The notes below the pieces were generated by a model. The model was given only the letters and a program-made list of their open reading frames with translations, had not been told where the DNA came from and did not search any database. A stretch of 64,000 nucleotides of DNA, taken from positions 2,592,001 to 2,656,000 of the forward strand of contig CBDETK010000013.1 in NCBI GenBank assembly GCA_965242865.1, read 5' to 3'. This document shows positions 3,314 through 57,700 of the stretch, one piece after another. A program made the position numbers and the translations under genes. Source of the stretch: Candidatus Latescibacterota bacterium (GTDB taxonomy: Bacteria > Latescibacterota > UBA2968 > UBA8231). Each line of letters starts with the position of its first letter. Within the stretch, counting starts at the first letter, position 1.

Positions 3314-3655
3314 ATGGATTTCAGTAATCCTCTGATCTATATAATTCCCGGACTAGCCATTTTTGGCTATATCGTAAAATGGATTATTAAGGTAGAAAGA
3401 TGGATGGGCAAGATAGACGAGTCTATACGCTTGCTTGAAGAAGGTGCCCGCGAAATGAGGACGGATATTACTTCTATTCAGGTTGTGGAGAAAAACAGCC
3501 CGCTCCGCTTGACGGAAGCGGGGCACTCTATTTCCGAGGCGTTGGATGTTAAGGATCGCCCTGTTGGGTGCTTGGAATCGATGCCGATTTTAATACGTCA
3601 TAAGTCCTTGAAAAACAACGACTTACCCCCCCCCCCCCCGAAAATTCTCCGCTAG
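3314..3655 (+). pseudogene. Small AT-rich membrane-anchored hypothetical protein, apparently truncated and fused into the poly-C leader repeat from 3559
   Basis: RBS GGGAG, N-terminal TM helix then coiled coil; last ~31 codons are repeat sequence shared with 21017-21116. Confidence 0.5.
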
Positions 3656-4217
3656 CACCAAGCACTAAACTCTCTACTTCTCAGCATAGGCCGACAGCTC
3701 GTGTGCGGCCGTTGGGCGTCGCGTCGGTCTGGCCGCGTGGCCCCAAGCGCACGCTGCCGTGCGGCCGTTGGGCTGATCCACGTTTACGGCACCACCCCCG
3801 CAACTCGTCTGCCAAAGACCGAGGGCGGAATCTCCTCGCCCCAGATACCGCGAGAACACTAGCAAAGGCGCACCCAAAGCAAGGGGCGCGTCCTGAGCAC
3901 TCCAAGTTAGGCCCTAGGGCTAGCTCTGCCTCTTTCGGGGCGTCATGCCCCTCTTCCAATCTCCACACCATATCCACACAAAGGAGCAAAACATGCCTTC
4001 GTTGAGATCGATAAAAACCCTGTTTGGATTCGTCCTTTTGGGCATCGTCGGTGCTTGGATGGGCTGCTCAGACTCCGCGCCGGTCGCCTCTCGGCCGGCG
4101 GGCAAAGCCACCTGTTCCTTATGCGAATTCTTGGGCGACGAGACTTACACCGCTGCCGACGGGTTGGCCGCCCCCGAAAGCCCTGACACCACCGAGACCG
4201 AAGCCGAAGCTGACAGT
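3559..4217 (+). repeat. Dispersed leader + lipoprotein N-terminus cassette, copy 1 (palindrome, C14 tract, ~350 nt leader, signal peptide region)
   Basis: Aligns by eye along its length with the reverse complement of ~20430-21116, with scattered substitutions and small indels. Confidence 0.9.
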
Positions 4218-4336
4218 ACATCTGGGCGGACTATGGCACGAGTAAAATTCAGCATGCCGACCTAAATGGATCAAACGTCGCAGACCTCGTCACGGGATTG
4301 AATGTTCCATCGAGCATCGCGCTGGAATTTCGGTAG
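3993..4336 (+). pseudogene. Internally deleted lipoprotein of the LRR/YWTD family (paralog of 18901-20667)
   Basis: RBS AAGGAG, signal ...AWMGC and acidic linker; at ~4220 the frame shifts into one terminal YWTD-type repeat IWADYGTSKIQHADLNGSNVADLVTGLNVPSSIALEFR*. Confidence 0.8.
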
Positions 4337-4486
4337 TCATGGAGGTGAGGCGACGCGGCAGAACGGGCTAAGGAGCCGAGCGGGAAGGATGGCGACCGCC
4401 TCTACGACTTGTTCAACACGCCCCAAGGTAGGATCTTCAGACCGCTTCTAAGGATTGCCGTAAAAACGCAGACGCGAGGAGTAGCG

Positions 4487-4972
4487 ATGAATGCAGTGCG
4501 GCTGTTGTGCCTAGGGGTCGCGCTCGCGGCTTCTACCGCTTTAGATGCCGATAAAACCACCCGCCGAATCCGGCAAGCCGCGATTGCCTCGACCATCGCC
4601 GTGGTGGCCGAAGGCGACTTTGAGCCGAGAAGTATCGGCAGCTACAGCCTCCGAATATACGCCGCAACCGATCCCCGCTTCCCTTACGACCGCTTTATTG
4701 CCGGGGCTGTCCGGCCACGCGACGGGGTCGTCGAAAGGGTGCAATTCTCCGATCTGGACGACGACGGATCGCCCGAAATCGTCGTGATTGTTCGCTCGGT
4801 TGGCTCCGGCGGCTATCTCTCGGCAGACGCCTTTCAATTGCACGAGAAAGCCCCGACGTGGCTGGCGACGGTGGCTGGCTTGGCGCCGGACGACGACCCC
4901 ATTCGCGCCCTTGCAGTCAAGCTCAAAGCGGGGCCTGAACCGCCTGCGGTTCCAGACGACGACCGCCCGTAG
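4487..4972 (+). CDS. pliI: PliI-family inhibitor of invertebrate-type lysozyme
   Basis: RBS GAGGAG; signal peptide; VVAEGDFEPRSIGSYSLRIY, RDG and SVGSGGY motifs. Confidence 0.8.
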   Translation: MNAVRLLCLGVALAASTALDADKTTRRIRQAAIASTIAVVAEGDFEPRSIGSYSLRIYAATDPRFPYDRFIAGAVRPRDGVVERVQFSDLDDDGSPEIVVIVRSVGSGGYLSADAFQLHEKAPTWLATVAGLAPDDDPIRALAVKLKAGPEPPAVPDDDRP

Positions 4973-7338: not shown

Positions 7339-7435
7339 TAGAAGCGTTCACGGTCTAGAAGGGCGGTCGCGGGGGACGCGCCCCTACGTGTCGCAACGTG
7401 CGTATTAAAAACGCATCCGACTTGGGGCTGTCAAA
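7339..7435 (+). repeat. 97-bp direct repeat, left of TA module; contains a GTAG-type REP-like palindrome (7361-7387, minus)
   Basis: Identical to 8009-8105 by direct comparison. Confidence 0.95.
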
Positions 7436-7453: not shown

Positions 7454-7801
7454 TCAACCAATGATGGTTTTGACTATCCGCCGAAGTTGGTCTTGGTCCG
7501 CCGGTTGCAGTTGCCCCAGCTTTTTAATGACCAACCCTTTTTCGATGGTAGTGATCACCGGCTTTACGACCGAAGGTTTGAGCAGTCCGGCTTGCCGCCA
7601 GCCAGCTATCGAGAATTCTCCGAGTGTTTGCATTGATTCAACTCGGCTTGTAACTGCTGCGATGACGACATCTGGTTTGGCAGCGTTATAAGCGGATGTA
7701 CTGATGACCGTTGCCGGGCGTTTTTTATGGCTGGTTTGGTCGGTAAAAGGGAACGGCACCAAGACGAGGTCGCCGAAGCTATAGGTTGTCGTATGCTGCA
7801 T
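7454..7801 (-). CDS. PemK/MazF-family toxin (type II TA)
   Basis: GDLVLVPFPFTD..KKRPA motif, 115 aa, overlaps the upstream small gene. Confidence 0.85.
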   Translation of the reverse strand: MQHTTTYSFGDLVLVPFPFTDQTSHKKRPATVISTSAYNAAKPDVVIAAVTSRVESMQTLGEFSIAGWRQAGLLKPSVVKPVITTIEKGLVIKKLGQLQPADQDQLRRIVKTIIG

Positions 7802-7997
7802 CCTCTGAATTGTCCCAGACTCGATTAAAGCTAGCCTCAGCGGTCCTTAATGCAGCCTGAGTTAGTTCCCGCTCCTGATCTTTGTGGTAGAGGAAATCGA
7901 TGAAATCCTCAACCGTGGCAAGGCGTTCCGGCGGCAGTAATTGGAGTTTGTGAAGCACCTGTTGAATGAGTGCTTGTTGGTCCCTAGGTGAAATCAT
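7779..7997 (-). CDS. Putative antitoxin (DUF2281-like)
   Basis: Small ORF directly upstream of the toxin; LPPERL..VEDFIDFL and acidic tail VWDNSEDAAYDNL. Confidence 0.7.
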   Translation of the reverse strand: MISPRDQQALIQQVLHKLQLLPPERLATVEDFIDFLYHKDQERELTQAALRTAEASFNRVWDNSEDAAYDNL

Positions 7998-8008
7998 CGC
8001 AATTCCCT

Positions 8009-8105
8009 TAGAAGCGTTCACGGTCTAGAAGGGCGGTCGCGGGGGACGCGCCCCTACGTGTCGCAACGTGCGTATTAAAAACGCATCCGACTTGGGGCTG
8101 TCAAA
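8009..8105 (+). repeat. 97-bp direct repeat, right of TA module; REP-like palindrome at 8031-8057
   Basis: Identical to 7339-7435. Confidence 0.95.
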
Positions 8106-17617: not shown

Positions 17618-18751
17618 ATGATTTCTAGATTGCTCAAAAGGCAAATTGACGCGCAACTCGCGCGCTATCCGGCCGTGGCCCTGAGCGGAGCGCGCCAGAC
17701 GGGTAAGACGACCTTAGCTAAAGCATTCGAGGGCCATTATTTCGACCTAGAAAATCCCCGCGACCAACTGCGTCTCGACGTCACGTGGGAGGAGCGGATG
17801 GGAACGCGGGAATTGGTCATCCTCGATGAAATCCAAGCCATGCCCGAACTCTTTCCGCGCTTGCGCGCCGCCATTGACGCGGACCGCAAGCGCTGTGGTC
17901 GCTTCCTGATGCTCGGCTCGGTTGCGCCCGCCCTGATGCAGCGGGCCGGTCAGGCGCTCACTGGCCGCCTAGCCCAACTCACCGGCTTTTTGGCGCGGGA
18001 ACGGCCTGTTGAAGAGTGGGATCGCCTGTGGCAACGGGGGGGGTATCCCGACGGCGGCATCCTCGACGCCAGCCGCTTTCCCGACTGGCAGCAAAACTAC
18101 CTCGCGCTCATGGCCCAGCGCGACCTTCCCACTTGGGGCCTGCCGGCCCAGCCCGTGCTCATCCAGCGGTTCTTCCGCATGTTGGCCGCGCTGCACGGCC
18201 AGATGTGGAATGCTTCCCAACTCGGCAAGAGCTTGGGATTGAGTTATCACACCGTCAATACATACGCCGACTTCCTAGAGCAAGCCTTCTTGATTCGTCG
18301 GCTGCCAGCCTATACGGCGAACCTGCACAAACGCTTGGTCAAGCGTCCCAAGCTCTATTGGCGCGACACCGGCCTCTTGCATGCCTTGCTGGGTCTCGAC
18401 CGCGACCGCGATGTATTGGACCAGCCGTGGGTTGGAACGAGTTGGGAAGGATGGGTGATTGAGCAGCTATTAGGCCACCTGCAAAGCACGGGCCGCGCTT
18501 TTGAGGCGTTTTATATGCGGACCAGCGACCAGCGGGAGATCGACCTCGTGTTGGAGTATCGCGGCCACCGCTGGGCCTTTGAGATCAAGCTGAGCAGTGC
18601 CCCGGACGCGGCGGATCTGCGGCGTTTGCAAGACCATGCCGCGCTCGTCAGCGCCGACCGGGTCGCCCTAATCAGCCGCACGACCGAGCCGGTCTGTGGC
18701 AAAGCGGTCGCCTCGCTCAATCTGGCCGCGGCCCTCGATTGGCTGCTCTAA
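17618..18751 (+). CDS. AAA_14 + DUF4143 ATP-binding protein
   Basis: GARQTGKTT, LDEIQ, GGYP, PKLYWRDTGL, EIDL..FEIK. Confidence 0.85.
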   Translation: MISRLLKRQIDAQLARYPAVALSGARQTGKTTLAKAFEGHYFDLENPRDQLRLDVTWEERMGTRELVILDEIQAMPELFPRLRAAIDADRKRCGRFLMLGSVAPALMQRAGQALTGRLAQLTGFLARERPVEEWDRLWQRGGYPDGGILDASRFPDWQQNYLALMAQRDLPTWGLPAQPVLIQRFFRMLAALHGQMWNASQLGKSLGLSYHTVNTYADFLEQAFLIRRLPAYTANLHKRLVKRPKLYWRDTGLLHALLGLDRDRDVLDQPWVGTSWEGWVIEQLLGHLQSTGRAFEAFYMRTSDQREIDLVLEYRGHRWAFEIKLSSAPDAADLRRLQDHAALVSADRVALISRTTEPVCGKAVASLNLAAALDWLL

Positions 18752-18900
18752 ACATCCCGTCATCCTCTTAGAAGCGGTCTGCTCCGCAAATTCTACCTTG
18801 GGGCGTGTTGAACAAGCCGTAGAGCCGGTGCTCGGCTCCTCAGTCCCTATCTGCCGCGTCGCCTCAACGCCATGCAAGCCGGGCCGGTGATCCTCCACGA

Positions 18901-20667
18901 CTACCAAACACCCAGCGCGAGGTACTTTGGAAACATCAACCCCCTAAGGAGGACTCGGGGATTTGAGCCATCCAAGTTGGCGCTCCCCACGTCACCCGGG
19001 ACCTGGTTCACAAAGGTACTCCCGTTCTGGTCCACCCAGTATATCTTTTCGCGCTCCGCATCCACCGCGATGCCCCATAGCTGCGTCACCCCCGCGGGGG
19101 TGACGACTTCGGCGTCTGAGCCATCCCCATCCAAGTCGGCCCGCTGAAGTCTAGTGCCCGTGGCCATGGTCCAGCTCACCCAGTATATCTTTCTGTTCAC
19201 CAAATCCAGCGCGACGCCCGATGCATTATTCGTGTTCGTGTTCGCAAGGAAGTCTTGGCGGTTTGAGCCATCCAAGTCGGCAGACTCAATCTTATTCAAA
19301 ACCCAGTCCGTCCAGTATATCTTTCCGCGCTCCGCATCCACCGCGATGCCCGTTGGAGTATTCAATGTCGAGGTGATGATGTCTGTGGGGGCTGGCGGGT
19401 CATCCAAGTTGGCAGACCCAATAGCGCCGGGGTTCTGGTCCGTCCAGTATATCTTTCTGTTCACCAAATCCAGCGCGACGCCCTGTGGCGAACCCAGGTT
19501 CGAGGCGATTCTTAGCGTGTCTGAGCCATCCAAGTTGGAACGCCGAATCGAACCGGCTGCCATCGCGTCCGCCCAGTATATCTTTCTGTTCGCCACATCC
19601 ACCGCGATGCCATTTGGATTACTTCCGTCGAGGTATCTTGGGATCCGACCATCGGATCGTACATGACCAAAATGAACTCGTGGCAAGGGGATGAAGGATC
19701 GGGCGACTGAGCCATCCAAGCTGACACGCCAAATCTTTGACCGTCTTTCTGTTCGGGGCGAATTTCTGTCACCGTCCGTCACGTATAGGGCGGGCCCTAC
19801 TGCTCCCTGCCCTTCATCCGGTTCTTCTGGATAGACCTGGACGGTTTCGACGCGGGGGTATTTTTCTAGTACCGCTTCGACGCGGAGGCCGCTTGTTATC
19901 GCGGCGGCGAGTTGTTGGTTGGCCGCGTGCTGGCTAAGGGCGTTTTCCATCACGCCCAGCCATTGCAGGTTGGTCAGGCTGGCCAACGGACTCACGTCCG
20001 CAATGTCGTTGTCACCTAGATTGAGAAATTGCAGATTGGTTAGGCCAGCGAACGGCTGTACATCCGTAATTTCGTTGCCCCACATATCCAGCGTGCGCAA
20101 GCTGATCAGGCTGGCCAGCGGACTCGCATCCGCCACCTTGTTGCCCCACAGCGACAACGTTTGAAGGTTGGTCAGGCTGGCCAACGGCTGCACATCGGTA
20201 ATCGCGTTGCCCCGCAGATACAGCGTTGTCAGGGCCGTTGCGTGTTCAAGGCCGGCCACGCTCTCAATGTTTTTATAGCTCGCGTCAAGTTCGGTTAGGG
20301 CCGCCAAGTCCGCCGGGGTCAGTGCTCCTTGCGGGCGATCCAGTGCCTCCCGCACCGCTCGCTCCAAATTGGCGTCGGCGAACTCCACGATGGCCGATTG
20401 GGTGCTGTCGGCGTCAGCGTCGGTCTGGGTGCTATCGGCGTCGGCGTCGGCGTCGGCGTCGGTTTGGGTGGTGTCGGGGCTTTCCCGGGCGGGCAGCCCG
20501 TCGGTAGCGGTGTAGGCGTCGTCGCCCAAGAACTCGCACAAGGAACAAGTGGCTTTGCCGGCTGGCCGAGAAGCCACCGGCGCGGAGTCTGAGCAGCCCA
20601 TCCAAGCAGCGACGATGCCCAAAAGGACGAGCGCAAACAGGGTTTTGAGAGATTTCAACGAAGTCAT
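18901..20667 (-). CDS. Lipoprotein with internalin-like LRRs and LDL-receptor class B (YWTD) repeats
   Basis: RBS AAGGAG; signal ...AWMGC; DADADAD linker; LRRs (LASLTNLQ.L.L..N.I.DV.P); five KIYW(T/A/V) repeats with ADLDGS/ANLDGS. Confidence 0.88.
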   Translation of the reverse strand: MTSLKSLKTLFALVLLGIVAAWMGCSDSAPVASRPAGKATCSLCEFLGDDAYTATDGLPARESPDTTQTDADADADADSTQTDADADSTQSAIVEFADANLERAVREALDRPQGALTPADLAALTELDASYKNIESVAGLEHATALTTLYLRGNAITDVQPLASLTNLQTLSLWGNKVADASPLASLISLRTLDMWGNEITDVQPFAGLTNLQFLNLGDNDIADVSPLASLTNLQWLGVMENALSQHAANQQLAAAITSGLRVEAVLEKYPRVETVQVYPEEPDEGQGAVGPALYVTDGDRNSPRTERRSKIWRVSLDGSVARSFIPLPRVHFGHVRSDGRIPRYLDGSNPNGIAVDVANRKIYWADAMAAGSIRRSNLDGSDTLRIASNLGSPQGVALDLVNRKIYWTDQNPGAIGSANLDDPPAPTDIITSTLNTPTGIAVDAERGKIYWTDWVLNKIESADLDGSNRQDFLANTNTNNASGVALDLVNRKIYWVSWTMATGTRLQRADLDGDGSDAEVVTPAGVTQLWGIAVDAEREKIYWVDQNGSTFVNQVPGDVGSANLDGSNPRVLLRGLMFPKYLALGVW

Positions 20668-21116
20668 TTTTTGCTCCTTTATATGGTTGGGGAAGAAATG
20701 GTATGGAGGTTGGAAGAGGGGCATGACGCCCCAAAAGAGGCGGAGTTAGCCCTAGGGCTATCACTTGGAGCGCTCAGGATGTGCGCCCCTTGCTGTGGGT
20801 GCGCCTTTGCTGGTGTTCTGGCGGCGTCCGGGGCGAGGAGATTCCGCCCTCGGTCCTTGGCAGACGGGTTGCGGGGGTGGTGCAGTAAACGGGGATCTGC
20901 ATAAAGGCCGCACGGTGGCGTACGCTTGGGATCGTGCGGCCAGACCGACGCGACGCCCAATGGCCGCGCACGAGCCGTCGGCCGATGCTGAGAAGTAGAG
21001 AGTGTAGTGCTTGGTGCTAGCGGAGAATTTTCGGGGGGGGGGGGGGGGGTAAGTCGTTGTTTTTCAAGGACTTACGACACATTAAATCCGACGACGATTC
21101 CAAGCACTCAACAGGG
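20430..21116 (-). repeat. Dispersed leader + lipoprotein N-terminus cassette, copy 2 (C17 tract; G17 at 21033-21049 on +)
   Basis: Inverted homolog of 3559-4217. Confidence 0.9.
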
Positions 21117-21221
21117 TTTTGCCCCATAGCAAGGCCCCTGCCTGATATGAAATGCTTAACCATCGTCTCGTTCATCTCTCGTTCATCCGCCAACCAATGG
21201 TGCCAAATTTGCCGCTGTAAC

Positions 21222-21282
21222 GGGCAGGCACGGGGGCCTGCCCCAACGGGATTCTTACGGGCAGGCACGGGGGGCCGCCCCT
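21222..21282 (-). repeat. Two tandem REP-like palindromes (GTTGGGGCAGGCCCCCGTGCCTGCCC and a variant)
   Basis: GGGCAGGC..GCCTGCCC stems at 21222-21247 and 21259-21282; resemble GTAG-family REPs. Confidence 0.6.
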
Positions 21283-21434
21283 GATTGTAGGTTCTTTGCC
21301 GTCGTCAAATAAAAGCCTAAACACAGAAGCCGCAACCGAATCACACAAAAAAATATAGTGTTCAGACAGCCAAAAGAAAAGTTCCGCCGAGCCATGTTCG
21401 ACGGAGCCTGTGCTGCAAGGGATATAGACGCTCC

Positions 21435-21755
21435 TCAGGTGCCCGGGGGCCGGTAGGGCACGCTTTTCCCGATGGCCTCGTCTATGGTTTCCGGGGCGAC
21501 CAGTACGGTAACGCTAATGTCGAGTGCGCCCGCGTTGCCGATGACCATGGACACGGCCGCGGCCGTTGCGTCGTCGGGAAGATCGGCAATGATATAGAGG
21601 TCTGGGGTGCCGAAGGCGTAGTACAGCGATTCCACGCTGCCGCCCATTTCCTCAATGGTCTGGGTTAGGGCCGCCCGTCGCCGCGTGCCGCCTTCCTTCA
21701 GCAAACCGGCCAGCCCGGCCTGCGTGTACGTCGCGCGAAACATGTATTTGCTCAT
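21435..21755 (-). CDS. GYD domain protein
   Basis: MSKYMFRATYT..G..GL, MGGSVESLYYAFG..D; RBS AGGAGG. Confidence 0.8.
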   Translation of the reverse strand: MSKYMFRATYTQAGLAGLLKEGGTRRRAALTQTIEEMGGSVESLYYAFGTPDLYIIADLPDDATAAAVSMVIGNAGALDISVTVLVAPETIDEAIGKSVPYRPPGT

Positions 21756-51758: not shown

Positions 51759-51792
51759 GCGGACCGACCCTTGAGGTTGCGGGTCGGTCCGC
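51759..51792. other. Perfect 12-bp GC-rich hairpin just after the giant gene
   Basis: GCGGACCGACCC-10 nt-GGGTCGGTCCGC; followed by A7 rather than U on the minus transcript, so not a canonical terminator. Confidence 0.55.
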
Positions 51793-51797
51793 TTGGT

Positions 51798-54700
51798 TCA
51801 AGCACCCCGTTGACGGACGGTTAGTTGCAGCGAGTAGGTGTCGGTGTCGCCATCAGTGTCGCGCACGGTCCACGTAATCCCACACTGTCCTGTCGAGCGC
51901 GGCGACCCGCTGACTGAAGAGGATGTAGCCGTTAGGCCAGCGCAGCTACCGCTGACTGAGTACCTCAAGGGCGCGTTGCCACTCCGGGCCGAGGGACGGG
52001 TGAAACTGAAGTACTGTCCCACGATCGCCGATCTGGAAGTGCCCGATGAGGCAAACGTAGGCGACGTGTCAGCGGCGACCGAGATTTGCAGCGAGTAGGT
52101 ATCCGTGTCGCCATCAGTATCCCGCACCGTCCAGCTAATCCCACATCGGCCTGCCGAGCGCGGCGAACCACTAACCGACGAGGATGTAACCGTTAGGCCA
52201 GCGCAACTGCCGCTAACCGAGTAGCGCAGAGGCGAGTTGCCGCCGCTGGCTGAGGGACGACTAAAACTGAAATACTGGCCCGCAATCGCCGACCTAGACG
52301 TCCCCGACGAGGCAAACGTAGGCGACGTGTCGGCGGCCACCGAAATCTGCAACGAGTACGTGTCGGTGTCGCCATCGGTATCCTGCGCTGTCCAAGTAAT
52401 CCCACACTGTCCAGCCGAACTCGGCGACCCACTCACCGCAGAGGTCGTCACCGTTAAGCCAGCGCAGGTGCCCCTGACTGAGTACGTCAAAGGCGTGTTA
52501 CCACCGCTGGCCGATGGACGACTAAAGCTGAAAGACTGACCCGCAATCGCAGCCCTTGCCGCACTCGACGCGGCGAATGAAGGCTCGGTGTCAGCGGCGA
52601 CCGTGATTTGCAGCGAGTACGTGTCGGTGTCGCCATCGGTGTCCTGCGCTGTCCAAGTAATCGCATACTCTCCTGCCGTACTTGGCGACCCACTGACCGC
52701 AGAGGCCGTCACCGTTAGGCCGGGACAGGTCCCGCGGACTGAGTAGCTCACGGGTGCGTTACCACCGCTGGCCGACGGACGAGTGAAACTGAAAGACTGG
52801 CCAACTATTGCGCCCTCTGAGGTCCCCGACGCGGCGAAAGAAGGCTCGGTATCGGCGGCGACCGTGATTTGCAGCGAGTACGTGTCGGTGTCGCCATCGG
52901 TATCCTGCGCTGTCCAGCTAATCCCACACTGTCCTGCCGTACTTGGCGACCCACTCACCGCAGAGGTCGTCACCGTTAAGCCAGCACAGGTGCCCCTGAC
53001 TGAGTACGTCAAAGGCGCGTTGCCGCCGCTGGCCGACGGACGAGTGAAACTGAAAGACTGACCCACGATCGCAGCCCTTGCCGCACTCGACGAGGCGAAT
53101 GAAGGTTCGGTGTCGGCCGCCACCGTGACTTGCAGCGAGTAGGTATCCGTATCGCCATCGGTGTCCTGCGCTGTCCAAGTAATCGCATACTCTCCTGCCG
53201 TACTTGGCGACCCACTGACCGCAGAGGACGTCACCGTTAGGCCGGGACAGGTCCCGCGGACTGAGTAGCTCACGGGTGCGTTACCACCGCTGGCCGACGG
53301 ACGACTAAAGCTGAAAGACTGGCCAACTATTGCGCCCTTTGAGGTCCCTGACGAGGCAAACGCAGGCTCGGTATCGGCAGCAACGGAGATTTGCAGCGAG
53401 TAGGTGTCGGTGTCGCCATCGGTGTCCTGCGCTGTCCAAGTAATCGCATACTCTCCTGCCGTACTTGGCGACCCACTGACCGCAGAGGCCGTCACCGTTA
53501 GGCCGGGACAAGTCCCGCGGACTGAGTAGCTCACGGGTGCGTTACCACCGCTGGCCGACGGACGAGTGAAACTGAAAGACTGGCCAACTATTGCGCCCTC
53601 TGAGGTCCCCGACGCGGCGAATGAAGGCTCGGTATCGGCGGCGACCGTGATTTGCAGCGAGTAGGTGTCGGTGTCGCCATCGGTGTCCTGCGCTGTCCAA
53701 GTAATCGCATACTCTCCTGCCGTACTTGGCGACCCACTGACCGCAGAGGACGTCACCGTTAGGCCGGGACAGGTCCCGCGGACTGAGTAGCTCACGGGTG
53801 CGTTACCACCGCTGGCCGACGGACGACTAAAGCTGAAAGACTGGCCAACTATTGCGCCCTCTGAGGTCCCTGACGAGGCAAACGCAGGCTCGGTGTCAGC
53901 GGCGACCGTGATTTGCAGCGAGTACGTGTCCGTGTCGCCATCGGTGTCGCGCACCGTCCAAGTAATCCCACACTGTCCAGCCGTACTCGGCGACCCACTG
54001 ACCGCAGAGGACGTAACCACCAAGCCGGGACAGGTACCGCGGACCGAGTAACTCACGGGCGCGTTGCCGCCGCTGGCCGACGGACGAGTGAAACTGAAAG
54101 ACTGACCCGCAATCGCAGCCCTTGCCGCACTCGACGAGGCGAATGAAGGCTCGGTGTCAGCGGCGACCGTGACTTGCAGCGAGTACGTGTCCGTATCGCC
54201 ATCGGTGTCGCGCACCGTCCAAGTAATCCCGCATTGTCCAGCCGTACTCGGCGAACCGCTGACCGCAGAGGTCGTAACCACCAAGCCGGGACAGGTACCG
54301 CGGACCGAGTAGCCCAAAGGGGCGTTGCCCCCGCTGGCCGACGGACGGGGAAAACTGAAAGGCTGTCCCGCGATCAACGATCTGGAAGCACCTGACGAGG
54401 CAAACGCAGGCTCGGTGTCGGCGACAACAGAAATTTGCAGCGAGTACGTGTCCGTATCGCCATCGGAGTCTGTAACCGTCCAAGTAATCCCACATTGGCC
54501 GATTAAACTCGGCGACCCACTCACCGACGAGGCGGTCACCCTTAGGCCAGAGCAGGCACCGCGGACCGAGTAGCGCAAAGGAGCGTTGCCCCCGCTGGCC
54601 GACGGACGGGGAAAACTAAAATACTGGCCTATGACCGCGGACCGGGAAGCACTCGACGAGGCAAACGCAGGCATGATATCCGCATCGTTGTCGAGCAGCG

Positions 54701-57700
54701 TCACCGTCGCCTGTCGCGTCGTACCGGCGGCCACTCCCGAAAGCAGACGCCCAAACGACAGCGTCACCGTCTCGTCGGCAATATCGGTGTCCTCGTTGGC
54801 CGTCAGCGTAAACGACTGCGACGACGTGCCAGCGGCAAACGACACCCACACCGTGCCATCCGTCAGCCCCGCCACCGCGTAATCGCCCGCCTCAGTGCCC
54901 GCATCCGCCGACACCACCACCGGAATGTGCAATGTCTGCGCGGGTGCTGGCGACAGCGACACCGTGATGGACGCGCCAGTGCCCCCTTCGGTCGCTTGGT
55001 AGGACACGGCCCCAAACGACGCGGTCCCCGACCAAGCCTGCGGCGGTGCCTGCGGCATCGTCGAGTGCGAGGCCGACGCCCCCGCGCCAGTGCTATTGAC
55101 CGCCCGCACCGCAAACTCGTAGAGCACCCCATTGGTCAGTCCTGTAACCGTACTATCGCGGGCCGTGCTGCCGCCCAACACAGGGGACCAACCCGGCCAG
55201 CCATGCCCCGAATTAGCCACCCGCCATTGAACTTCATAGCGGGTCACTGGCGAGCCATTGGCCGAAGCCGCATCCCATCCCAAGACCACCCGACCATCCC
55301 CCGGCGAGGGCACAAAGTTCGGAGGCGCACCCGGCACCCCGGCGCGCACTGGCGCGGTCTCCATGCTCGTCGCGGTATTGCCCCCGCCGAGGGCGTCGCG
55401 ATAGGATTTGAGCAGTGCTCGCAACGCCCAGCCCACCTGAGCGACCAGCGGCGTGTAGCTCACAGACGCCTCGTCCGACGCCGCGCTCGAAAGAAGCTGC
55501 CACGCCGTCGTACCCGGTTGCTGTCCCTGCCATTGCCAGTCTAGGTGGGTCACACCCCCATCCGGATCGGTCAGTTCCGCGGTCAACGGCACCCCTACCT
55601 GCGGCGAGGACGTACTCAGCGACACTACGCCGGGATCATTCGCATTCGTCACCGTCACCGTCACCGGATAGTTGGTAGCGAGTACCGGCGTACCATTGTC
55701 AGTAGCCACCACGGTCACTTGGTAGATATTGTTTGTGCCGCGGTCTGTCGGAGGCGATTGGTCCGGTGGGTGCGCTCGATCCGTCGGCCCTTCAAAATCT
55801 GGCCTCGTCCGAAAGGTCAACTCGCCGTTCGTACTCAGGTTGAAATCAGCCGAATCCGTACCCGTCAGCGACCACGTAATCGCATGGCTTTCCGCGTCGG
55901 TAGCCATGTACATGGCCACCGTCCCCGTGCCGTTCTCGCCAAAAGAGGGGTGTTCATCGCCCGTGATCACCGGCGCGGAGTTGAGTGTCACCCCAGCACT
56001 GTTCGAGGCTGGCCCCCATCCTGCGACGTTGTGCGCCCGAACCGCAAAGGTATAAGTGGTCCCGTTGGTCAGGTCCATCACCGTATATTCGTCGGTGTCC
56101 GCGTCGCTGTCGGACATAGCCTGCCAGTCCCCCCCATTCTGTTGGTATTGCCAACCATCGATGGTGGAGTCGTCCGGATCATCCCAGCTCAACGTGGCCG
56201 CATCATCGCCGGCGATCACGGTCAGGTTCTCCGGTGCCGAGGGACGAAAAGTGATGTCCACCGTCAGCCTATCGTTGGGGTCGGAGCGGGTGATGTCGGT
56301 GATTGCTAACCCCACATCGCCGGGGTCGGGCTGCCGACCCCCTCCACGCGTCGCCCTCAGAGTCATCTGGCGCAGACCCATCCCAGCTATCTGGGTATCA
56401 ACCGCATTAACCGCCGGCTGTATAAGCCTGACGTCGTCCCCCACCCGCACGGTGTCCGCCGCCACTGGAAACGGATCGTAGAGCATGTCTTGGTATTCAT
56501 GGATGGCTGGGCTATAACCTCGGTCGCGGGCGTTCATGAACCGCCGCCCGTCGGCCGTGATCAGTATCGGACGCTCGATAAGGAAATTGGGATTGAAACG
56601 GCGGCGCCAGATAAATAGACCTGGGTCTCTATCCTCGTATTCGTAATACGACACGTAGCGGCCAAACGAGCGGCCATTACTCCCGTCGTGAGTGCGCCGT
56701 TCCAGCAGGTACTCAACCTGACCCCGGTTGGTTGAACGGATAATCCGATGTACCGTCCCCGGCTCAATGACGTAATCGTCCTGATTATCAGTGATGTCTG
56801 TGGGAGTCAACCAGCCTAGGTCCCACCGATAAAAGGGGTTGATCGGGTTGGGGCAGGAGCGGTAAGCCCTGTAATAGAGTTGCATCGGCCTGCTGCTGTC
56901 TGTCTCTTGCGGCCCGGCCCCCGACCCTTGCATCAACCCCCAATCCATCAGGTTGGCCGTATTATCAGTGGTATCAGCAGCGGCTGATGTGTACGGATTG
57001 GGGCCTCTCCACTGGCCGCCAGGGTGGTTGAGACCCAGCAGGTGGCCGATTTCGTGGGCGTGGATGAAAATCCCGGCGAACTCGTCAATGTCATGGTCGT
57101 TGGTACCCCAACCTTGGCGCTCGCCCATGACATAGCGGTAGCCTACTTGAGTAGGCATGCCTGCCCTATCGGTCCTTGTAACCTCATCCACTCGCGGATG
57201 CAGCAGACCTGTGGGATATCGGGCGGTATAGGTGGCCCCGGAATGCAGGTAAACTACCTTGCGGCGCAAGCGGTGAGCAGTGTCGTAAGAGTCATTGGGG
57301 AGGTCATTGATGGTGTATCCTGCTACCGACTCCCCGCAGTTACGAGAACCCGAAGTCCCGTTCCAGCAGTTCACCGAATCCCGCGCCGCCGCATACGCGT
57401 CGTCCCAGAACCAATTCCTAATGGCTCTGCTCCGGTCATTTGGCAGCGTTCCTAAAGAGTCTCTTCCAATCTCGGCATAATGGGCCTTGGTTTGCGGCAG
57501 TTCAACCCAGCGAGGGAATCCGTTGGCGGCCGGATTGATCATGCGCACGTGCAATTGGAACGCCCCATTGGACACCGAGTCGTAATACGCCCGCACACTG
57601 CCGAACACTTCCGGCAGCGTATGGCCATTGGCCACCGTGACCGTGTCGCCGACAAAAGGCAAATCCGCTAAGCGGCCATAGCCGCCGCTGAATAGCCGCT

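Follow-up and report, generated by a model that had tools for sequence, protein, structure and literature searches.

The DNA considered here, referred to as the window, comprises 64,000 nucleotides of contig CBDETK010000013.1 (positions 2,592,001 to 2,656,000 of the forward strand) from a Candidatus Latescibacterota bacterium. Its subject is a repeat present twice in inverted orientation, each time at the 5' end of a putative lipoprotein gene with a long leader that contains a small open reading frame (ORF) and a run of C residues. Four inverted blocks are colinear and join copy 1 (3559-4214) to copy 2 (21116-20446), namely 3559-3639/21036-21116 (81 nt, 89% identity), 3626-3889/20783-21046 (264 nt, 90%), 3911-3974/20695-20758 (64 nt, 91%) and 3974-4214/20446-20686 (241 nt, 86%). 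Both copies carry a ribosome-binding site (RBS), a signal peptide ending in Cys, a CSLC motif and an acidic linker, so that the inverted pair with RBS, signal, Cys, CxxC and linker described in a first-pass annotation of this DNA is borne out, at 86-91% identity. A fifth short match, 4395-4441/18783-18829, pairs the DNA downstream of copy 1 with the DNA downstream of the copy 2 gene, which gave the first hint that copy 1 is a shortened gene.

The repeat is not confined to these two copies. When the genome of the organism (6.0 Mb in 13 contigs) was searched with it, 53 matches were obtained, which blastn grouping assigns to 47 places; 28 of these are at least 558 bp long, and all 28 lie on the 5.6-Mb contig, scattered across 5.4 Mb of it. 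All-against-all comparison revealed that the repeated unit measures ~2.5 kb, from about -250 to about +2200/2400 relative to the 5' boundary given by the first-pass annotation, and that it comprises the complete gene together with more upstream DNA and ~100-150 nt of 3' flank, beyond which homology ends. The ~660-bp stretch that had been read as the element is the 5' third of this gene unit. The sharp 5' boundary attributed to it belongs to copy 1 only, as the other 27 copies extend 71-332 nt farther upstream, and the divergence reported downstream of it reflects an internal deletion in copy 1, since elsewhere homology spans the whole gene.

This deletion is apparent from the alignment, in which window positions 4150-4220 correspond to about +600-690 of the other units, while 4222-4452 correspond to their last YWTD blade, stop codon and 3' flank (about +1980-2240). 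The jump at 4220/4222 indicates that copy 1 lacks ~1.3 kb internally and is out of frame, and together with its 5' cut this loss explains both the sharp boundary and the divergence after 75 codons. Judged from its sequence, copy 1 is dead: no start codon is left for its leader ORF, the LRR domain is gone, and of the YWTD blades only the last survives. The 113-aa ORF that runs into copy 1 belongs to no Pfam or NCBIfam family, and its sole relative is a 75-aa frame matching residues 1-56. The proposal that copy 1 truncates an unrelated ORF found no confirmation, as the ORF (3314-3655) continues in frame into the element. The features of both copies are collected in Table 1.

Table 1. Coordinates of the features of the two copies within the window. 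SD, Shine-Dalgarno sequence; REP, repetitive extragenic palindromic.
Feature	Positions	Strand	Details
Copy 1 repeat	3559..4217	+	5'-truncated leader and first 74 codons of a decayed family member
113-aa ORF	3314..3655	+	begins in unrelated DNA, enters the leader-ORF remnant in frame (...RHKSLKNNDLPPPPPKILR*)
Conserved 25-nt motif, copy 1	3601..3625	+	TAAGTCCTTGAAAAACAACGACTTA; codons (..T)AAG TCC TTG AAA AAC AAC GAC TTA = KSLKNNDL
C14 tract, copy 1	3626..3639	+	proline codons
Long conditional frame, copy 1	3640..4005	+	121 codons, GAA...TGA; stop 13 nt into main ORF
SD of main ORF, copy 1	3981-3986	+	AAGGAG
Remnant main ORF, copy 1	3993..4265	+	90 aa: signal peptide, Cys, CSLC, acidic linker, then out of frame
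3' part of copy 1	4222..4452	+	last YWTD blade, stop region and conserved 3' flank
Copy 2	18767..21337	-	complete ~2.5-kb family unit
Main ORF, copy 2	18901..20667	-	588 aa: signal peptide and Cys, CSLC, acidic linker, LRR_4, Ldl_recept_b (YWTD) repeats
Stop of long frame, copy 2	20679-20681	-	TAA, overlapping the SD, 11 nt before main ATG
Long conditional frame, copy 2	20679..21032	-	117 codons
Leader ORF, copy 2	21017..21163	-	present phase, 48 aa (MVKHFISGRGLAMGQNPVECLESSSDLMCRKSLKNNDLPPPPPPKILR*)
C17 tract, copy 2	21033..21049	-	
Conserved 25-nt motif, copy 2	21050-21074	-	
REP-like GC hairpin units, 5' side	21221..21281	-	GGGGCAGGCCCCCGTGCCTGCCCGT...; number differs between copies

The dispersal of single-gene units over 28 sites, with homology ending at the unit ends, could also be expected of a non-autonomous mobile element, derived from a miniature inverted-repeat transposable element or an insertion sequence, that carries a passenger gene. 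However, terminal inverted repeats average 5.8 nt against 5.4 nt in shuffled sequence, and flanking direct repeats 5.5 against 5.1 nt, both being crude measures taken at blast-defined ends. As the 5' ends are moreover ragged (-71 to -332) and zero matches were obtained among 72,556 plasmids, this explanation is highly improbable. The end motif AGGATTGCCGTAGAAGTA is confined to 5' unit ends apart from a single occurrence 3' of copy 1. Most family units are bordered on the 5' side by REP-like GC hairpin units of ~37 nt in 1-4 copies, and genomes from a different family in the same class contain many similar units.

The extent of copy 2 agrees with public contigs from four sequencing runs of two studies (X1-X4), which were compared to window positions 18600-21600. 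On the low side, contigs end at 18795-18796 in X1, X2 and X4 and at 18799 in X3; on the high side, they restart at 21308 in X1 and X2 and at 21370 in X3, with X4 uncovered there. The two runs of one of these studies are on record as sponge metagenomes, which supports a sponge habitat; the source of the other two runs is given as a code. None of the sequencing runs listed for the locus is of RNA. Additionally, in four of the four runs a contig passes from a unit's 3' flank into a unit's 5' edge via the same 21 letters (window 18770/21337), which means that two units, or a unit and a 3'-flank remnant, stand head to tail somewhere. Several units have such a 3'-flank remnant upstream.

The genes within the units form a family of putative lipoproteins. 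ORFs of 474-596 aa are present at 24 of the 28 places, and with one diverged member that is likewise open 25 look intact, while three are truncated (90, 228 and 236 aa). The copy 2 protein matches the Pfam families LRR_4 (7.9e-30) and Ldl_recept_b, the YWTD repeats (2e-25), and its LRR part resembles internalin LRRs far below the family cut-offs. In every member, the signal peptide ends in ...LLG(I/V)V(G/A)AW(M/T/I)GC, followed by SDS, in which positions -3 and -2 (W, M) depart from the classical lipobox, L-[AS]-[GA]-C. Residues 1-290 are near-invariant family-wide, whereas the propeller is highly variable. The ratio of nonsynonymous to synonymous divergence (dN/dS) has a median of 0.25 in the leader peptide region of the main ORF (dS 0.225) and of 0.24 in the LRR part (dS 0.30), against about 1.2 in the YWTD part (dN 0.53, dS 0.40), where the repeats are hard to align. 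This suggests that the propeller half may be under diversifying selection or subject to blade shuffling. Pairwise distances reach 0.70 in the propeller, which in copy 2 occupies 18901-19800 on the minus strand, and stay within 0.18 in the LRR half.

Recombination among the members was assessed with distance correlations and a purpose-made permutation test that combines the four-gamete criterion with a statistic resembling the pairwise homoplasy index (PHI). Distances in the LRR part show no correlation with those in the YWTD part (rho 0.05), and the nearest neighbour of a copy usually changes from segment to segment; 57% of informative-site pairs fail the four-gamete test, and the PHI-like statistic lies below all 1000 permutations. 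Together, these results indicate that the paralogs exchange sequence. The suggestion that C-terminal domains are swapped therefore holds insofar as the paralogs recombine (PHI-like, 0/1000), but not insofar as different domains were envisaged, as all full members share one LRR and YWTD architecture. The first-pass annotation had gone further and proposed a discrete, portable ~660-bp regulatory and export cassette, moved in front of different C-terminal repeat domains. The 5' and 3' halves of the gene do have separate histories, and a module of leader ORF and tract does precede unrelated gene families, as described below. This idea is nevertheless very unlikely, given that the repeated unit is the whole ~2.5-kb gene with its flanks, that a single architecture is found in all full members, and that both edges of the supposed cassette are lesions of one pseudogene, copy 1, with its 5' cut and internal deletion, which already contradicts the boundaries proposed.

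Upstream of the gene, Jukes-Cantor (JC) distances between copies are 0.04-0.08 from -64 to +160 and 0.05 at the RBS, with 0.14-0.17 between. Set against a dS of 0.22-0.30 in the adjoining coding sequence, the low distances of the upstream core imply that this DNA is not neutral. It contains an upstream ORF whose C-terminal end is [RH]KSLKNN[DN]L, followed by a proline run from the variable C tract. The consensus codons are (..T)AAG TCN TTR AAA AAC AAY RAY TTA (CCC)n, that is, KSLKNN[DN]L-Pro(n), and the variable positions of the motif (4, 7, 10, 19 and 22) are third codon positions. Among 114 instances of the motif, comprising 40 from this genome that passed the script criteria and 74 from nine relatives and one metagenome contig, the KSLKNN frame has an in-frame ATG without an intervening stop within 100 nt upstream in 91, compared to 13 for each of the other two frames. 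The leader ORFs fall into mutually unrelated N-terminal classes (MVKHF..., MLDNL..., MLRKSL, MAVPCSTLEITP..., MVNQLNYERML... and MPLPLAQPAAP...), across which the C-terminal nine residues and the tract are constant. Constraint on the LRR-type leader peptide is weak, with a cross-genome ratio of nonsynonymous to synonymous polymorphism (pN/pS) of 0.41-0.91, and the within-family test, in which 12 of 29 variants are synonymous and 21% were expected to be so, is itself weak. A putative translated leader describes the upstream part better than a promoter or untranslated region (UTR) cassette does.

The leader peptide belongs to no Pfam or NCBIfam family, and among 5.8 billion proteins in the databases searched there is no match of similar length; longer proteins resembling the leader ORF number three, two of which come from this genome. 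With up to three mismatches allowed, the degenerate motif pattern finds 41 sites in this genome and 0 for a reversed control. The genome has 68 runs of C or G of at least 9 nt, 33 of which lie directly behind the motif. Tract lengths range from 5 to 22 in this genome (40 instances) and from 6 to 26 in relatives; the tracts are unusually long, with a median of 13-14 and a maximum of 26. Their variation was seen between paralogs, and metagenome scans for the motif and tract returned 0 loci and 1 locus. The motif also holds (TTA/TTG) AAA AAC, which in most relatives corresponds to the -1 frameshift heptamer A-AAA-AAC.

It is also conceivable that the 25-nt motif and the C tract act as nucleic acid, whether as the operator of a dimeric regulator, as a 5' RNA hairpin or as a C-rich site for loading of Rho within a structured leader RNA. 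The consensus TAAGTCGTTG-AAAAA-CAACGACTTA forms an inverted repeat of 10 bp without mismatches, synonymous changes are nearly absent from the AAA and AAC codons but not from their neighbours, the ~50 nt behind the tract are C-rich and G-poor, and the consensus leader folds at -87.8 kcal/mol. Yet pairing at the variable stem positions is retained in only 28-50 of the 76 distinct motif versions, and covariation is not above that of shuffled alignments (78-184 of 500 as high). The Rfam/Infernal check of the leader found no family, either in the whole window at the gathering score or in 20600-21350 at E<=1. Furthermore, the asymmetry of 91 against 13 and 13 between the reading frames would be left unexplained, and we regard an action as nucleic acid as distinctly unlikely.

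Several other readings of the leader were tried and set aside. A scan for sigma-70 promoters gave 0 gene-strand sites in either window copy, and a promoter composed of TTGAAA ... GAAAAT would have a spacer of 21-34 nt. The upstream TGGCAC...TTGG has, by eye, the wrong spacing for a sigma-54 promoter, and the segment is missing from several copies. A structured-RNA leader was rejected with an RNAalifold covariation term of -1.47, 4 of 93 pairs compensatory and no measure above shuffles, and the palindrome was rejected as a hairpin as its central pairs are often mismatched.

Behind the tract, the frame beginning GAA AAT TCT... (frame 0) is open through the entire leader in 21 of 27 family copies. 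The leaders are 263-476 nt long, and the long frame has 83-198 codons. A shuffled leader would be free of stops with a median probability of 0.03. Across the 27 leaders, frame 0 contains nine stops, whereas the two other sense frames contain 88 and 100 and the frames of the opposite strand 58-109. The frame-0 stop lies at the main ATG, at +13 in 16 of the 27 (ATGN7TGA), at -11 in three and at +4 in one, while the other two frames stop 9 and 5 codons past the tract in nearly all copies. There are three types of leader, whose middle segments are non-homologous, and the lengths of 21 of the 27 leaders take 11 different values, every one of which is 2 mod 3. Frame 0 has no codon periodicity, its synonymous fraction being 0.32 against 0.26 expected and 0.35 in another frame. 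The apparently kept feature of the long frame is thus its openness and register, not a protein sequence. In one member (G000 C13:5563866-5564649; L018/L029), the first ~120-210 nt of the leader are tandemly duplicated; this leader measures 476 nt, and its long frame is still open.

The arrangement extends beyond this family. The motif is found in 15 of 30 other genomes of the genus and in 4 of 101 genomes outside it, and the first part of the leader, consisting of the small ORF and C tract, precedes unrelated families of secreted proteins, including LRR, FN3 and PEGA-like lipoproteins and Calx-like proteins. The earlier notion of a reusable module is therefore upheld for the small ORF and tract, but not for the 660 bp. 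Of 101 leaders measuring 100 nt or more, 67 possess a frame that continues from the tract without a stop until it is within 30 nt of the main ATG, very frequently ending in an ATGA overlap, whereas shuffled leaders gave 12.1 +/- 3.2 such cases, with a maximum of 26 in 200 shuffles. This layout occurs in 10 of 18 leader clusters. In a Calx-like secreted family of two other species, 27 of 31 leaders have it, and these are unrelated in sequence to the LRR leaders. In 17 further instances, such as FN3-type lipoproteins, the main ORF itself includes the tract, which separates the KSLKNN.L peptide from the signal peptide. As assembled, the tract leads into the long frame in 18 of the 67 leaders (4 of 23 when this genome is taken alone), and 9 of the 17 genes with a fused tract have it in frame. 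Such mixed phases are predicted by a stochastic switch, and equally by neutral drift.

Taken together, these observations make it probable, in our view, that the repeat forms the 5' end of units in a recombining family with at least 28 members, in which a slippage-prone leader ORF acts as a frame switch that gates each lipoprotein gene. The length of the C tract would change through slipped-strand mispairing; one tract phase in three would then send ribosomes along the long frame to the main start, while in the other two they would halt 5 or 9 codons past the tract. Arrival of ribosomes at the start codon would turn the lipoprotein gene on, either by termination and reinitiation at the main start or, alternatively, because their transit would shield the otherwise naked leader of 260-480 nt from Rho-type polarity. 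The ~50 nt past the early stops are C-rich and G-poor, and RNAalifold pairs 4 nt of the main SD weakly with CUCC behind the tract. The outcome would be a mixed population displaying differing subsets of about 25 variant surface proteins.

We hold more tentatively to the broader possibility that the same kind of switch is lineage-wide, a ribosome relay in which tract slippage would gate ~40 genes here and other secreted families in half of the genus. Such a relay would consist of a leader peptide with the C-tract proline run, followed by a spacer ORF of at least 100 codons and arbitrary sequence leading to the start of a surface gene, and the ~25-member LRR/YWTD lipoprotein family with its diversifying propeller would be among the genes gated. 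Proline stalling and the embedded A-AAA-AAC heptamer could give intermediate levels of expression; a -1 slip would shift the commonest tract phase (...PPPKILR*) into the long frame.

A number of observations weigh against a switch of this kind. With a strong SD (AAGGAG) of its own, the main gene need not be coupled and could be translated independently, and the assignment of the long frame to the ON state is an assumption. No clear SD precedes the leader ORF in the LRR family, and an in-frame ATG within 100 nt is missing from 23 of the 114 motif instances. In 17 type-A leaders, variants that create new stops are not rarer in frame 0 (two, against four and one in the other frames), and in combination with common ancestry this means that part of the openness may be inherited from one ancestor; the family copies are paralogs, and counts among them are not independent. 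Among 111 instances across the genus for which a main ORF was called, 27 have neither layout. The tract lengths were taken from a single assembly, in which homopolymer lengths may be miscalled, and in the four public runs the contigs inside the copy 2 unit are fragmented (84-419 nt), with zero spanning the C tract.

Several of these points would be accommodated by an ordinary expanded family of paralogs that shares a promoter and 5' UTR under gene conversion, with a neutral C run and a relic open frame. Recombination among the copies is heavy, frame 0 is without codon periodicity or depletion of new stops in type-A copies, and the tract phases are near random. However, 11 leader lengths and three non-homologous leader types keep one frame and a stop at the main ATG, the layout recurs with unrelated leaders in other families and species far over the shuffled expectation, and the upstream core evolves 3-5 times slower than neighbouring synonymous sites. 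An ordinary family is consequently unlikely, and the gating of the lipoprotein genes by a leader-ORF switch remains the reading that we prefer.

Beside copy 1, positions 4409-4972 (+) encode a PliI-type periplasmic inhibitor of I-type (invertebrate) lysozyme (PF16743, E 1.3e-39), which is plausible as a countermeasure to host defence in a sponge associate. Other repeats are present in the window. Eleven tandem copies of a 261-nt (87-codon) unit with 67-82% identity occupy 51775-54726, presumably inside the gene of a giant repetitive protein. A perfect 97-nt direct repeat (7339-7435 and 8009-8105) encloses two small overlapping minus-strand ORFs (7454-7801 and 7779-8021). Furthermore, there is a direct repeat of 99% identity at 37968-38267/40289-40588, 2.3 kb apart, and a set of direct repeats of 74-93% identity at 48555-49976/59135-60577, 10.6 kb apart; the 30-60 kb region of the window holds other duplicated genes.

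If the proposed switch is real, a non-pathogenic marine symbiont would have stochastic, heritable surface variation on the scale of that of Neisseria, Treponema and Mycoplasma, and the route would be a repeat-phased leader ORF coupled to the gene start. Leaders of such a kind escape gene callers. Eukaryote-like repeat proteins are thought to help sponge symbionts handle host cells. In the portion drawn on here, a paper on sponge Latescibacterota only counts eukaryote-like repeat domains (PMC12993501). Among the papers listed by literature searches, none described a repeat-phased upstream ORF (uORF) and none linked sponge symbionts with phase variation.

Known systems, as described in the excerpts cited, share individual features with this arrangement. 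Neisseria hpuA, hmbR and pilC and the poly-G genes of Campylobacter are homopolymer contingency loci in 5' coding regions (PMC3786947; PMC8355987). As here, a G/C homopolymer stands at the start of a surface gene and a change in its length shifts the frame, and the 17 instances with the tract inside the main ORF have the same layout. Unlike in the accounts of those loci, the tract of the LRR family, and of 67 of 101 leaders, lies in a separate upstream ORF 100-480 nt before the gene, where it would pick between a short and a long leader frame, and it always stands behind one conserved motif. In the tpr family of Treponema pallidum, including tprL, surface-protein paralogs likewise each have their own upstream homopolymer of variable length, and a promoter poly-G alters transcription initiation (PMC7864442). 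In contrast, no sigma-70-type promoter flanks the tract here, which is read as codons.

The vsp and vpma genes of Mycoplasma also have a lipoprotein signal peptide and a 5' untranslated region that are strongly conserved, followed by repetitive mature parts that diverge, and they are clustered genes subject to site-specific inversion by Xer1 (PMC2268961). Unlike these, the genes described here lie at 28 dispersed sites, where no search was aimed at adjoining recombinase genes, and the candidate switch is the C tract in the leader ORF. The vlp genes of Mycoplasma are likewise a variable lipoprotein family.

Leaders that act after the start of transcription provide a further comparison. In tnaC and other cases, occupancy of a leader ORF by ribosomes decides downstream expression through coupling or Rho-dependent attenuation, and phase variation via exposed Rho utilization (Rut) sites is described for fim and for flgB of Clostridioides difficile (PMC12360218). 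Whereas the input to uORFs of the tnaC type is, in that account, a metabolite or a DNA inversion, here a heritable frameshift of the uORF would be the input. In Helicobacter pylori, a homopolymer in the mRNA leader of tlpB is involved in pairing with the small RNA RepG (PMC8295292), and in Haemophilus influenzae a simple repeat in the 5' UTR of hmw affects processing by RNase III (PMC12721329). These systems, as excerpted, resemble the present one in having a variable simple repeat upstream of a surface gene that acts after transcription start; their leaders are untranslated, in contrast to the action through the reading frame proposed here. The Latescibacterota genes differ from all of these in that the tract lies within a conserved leader ORF, where it would pick out a long spacer frame that ends at the start of the gene.

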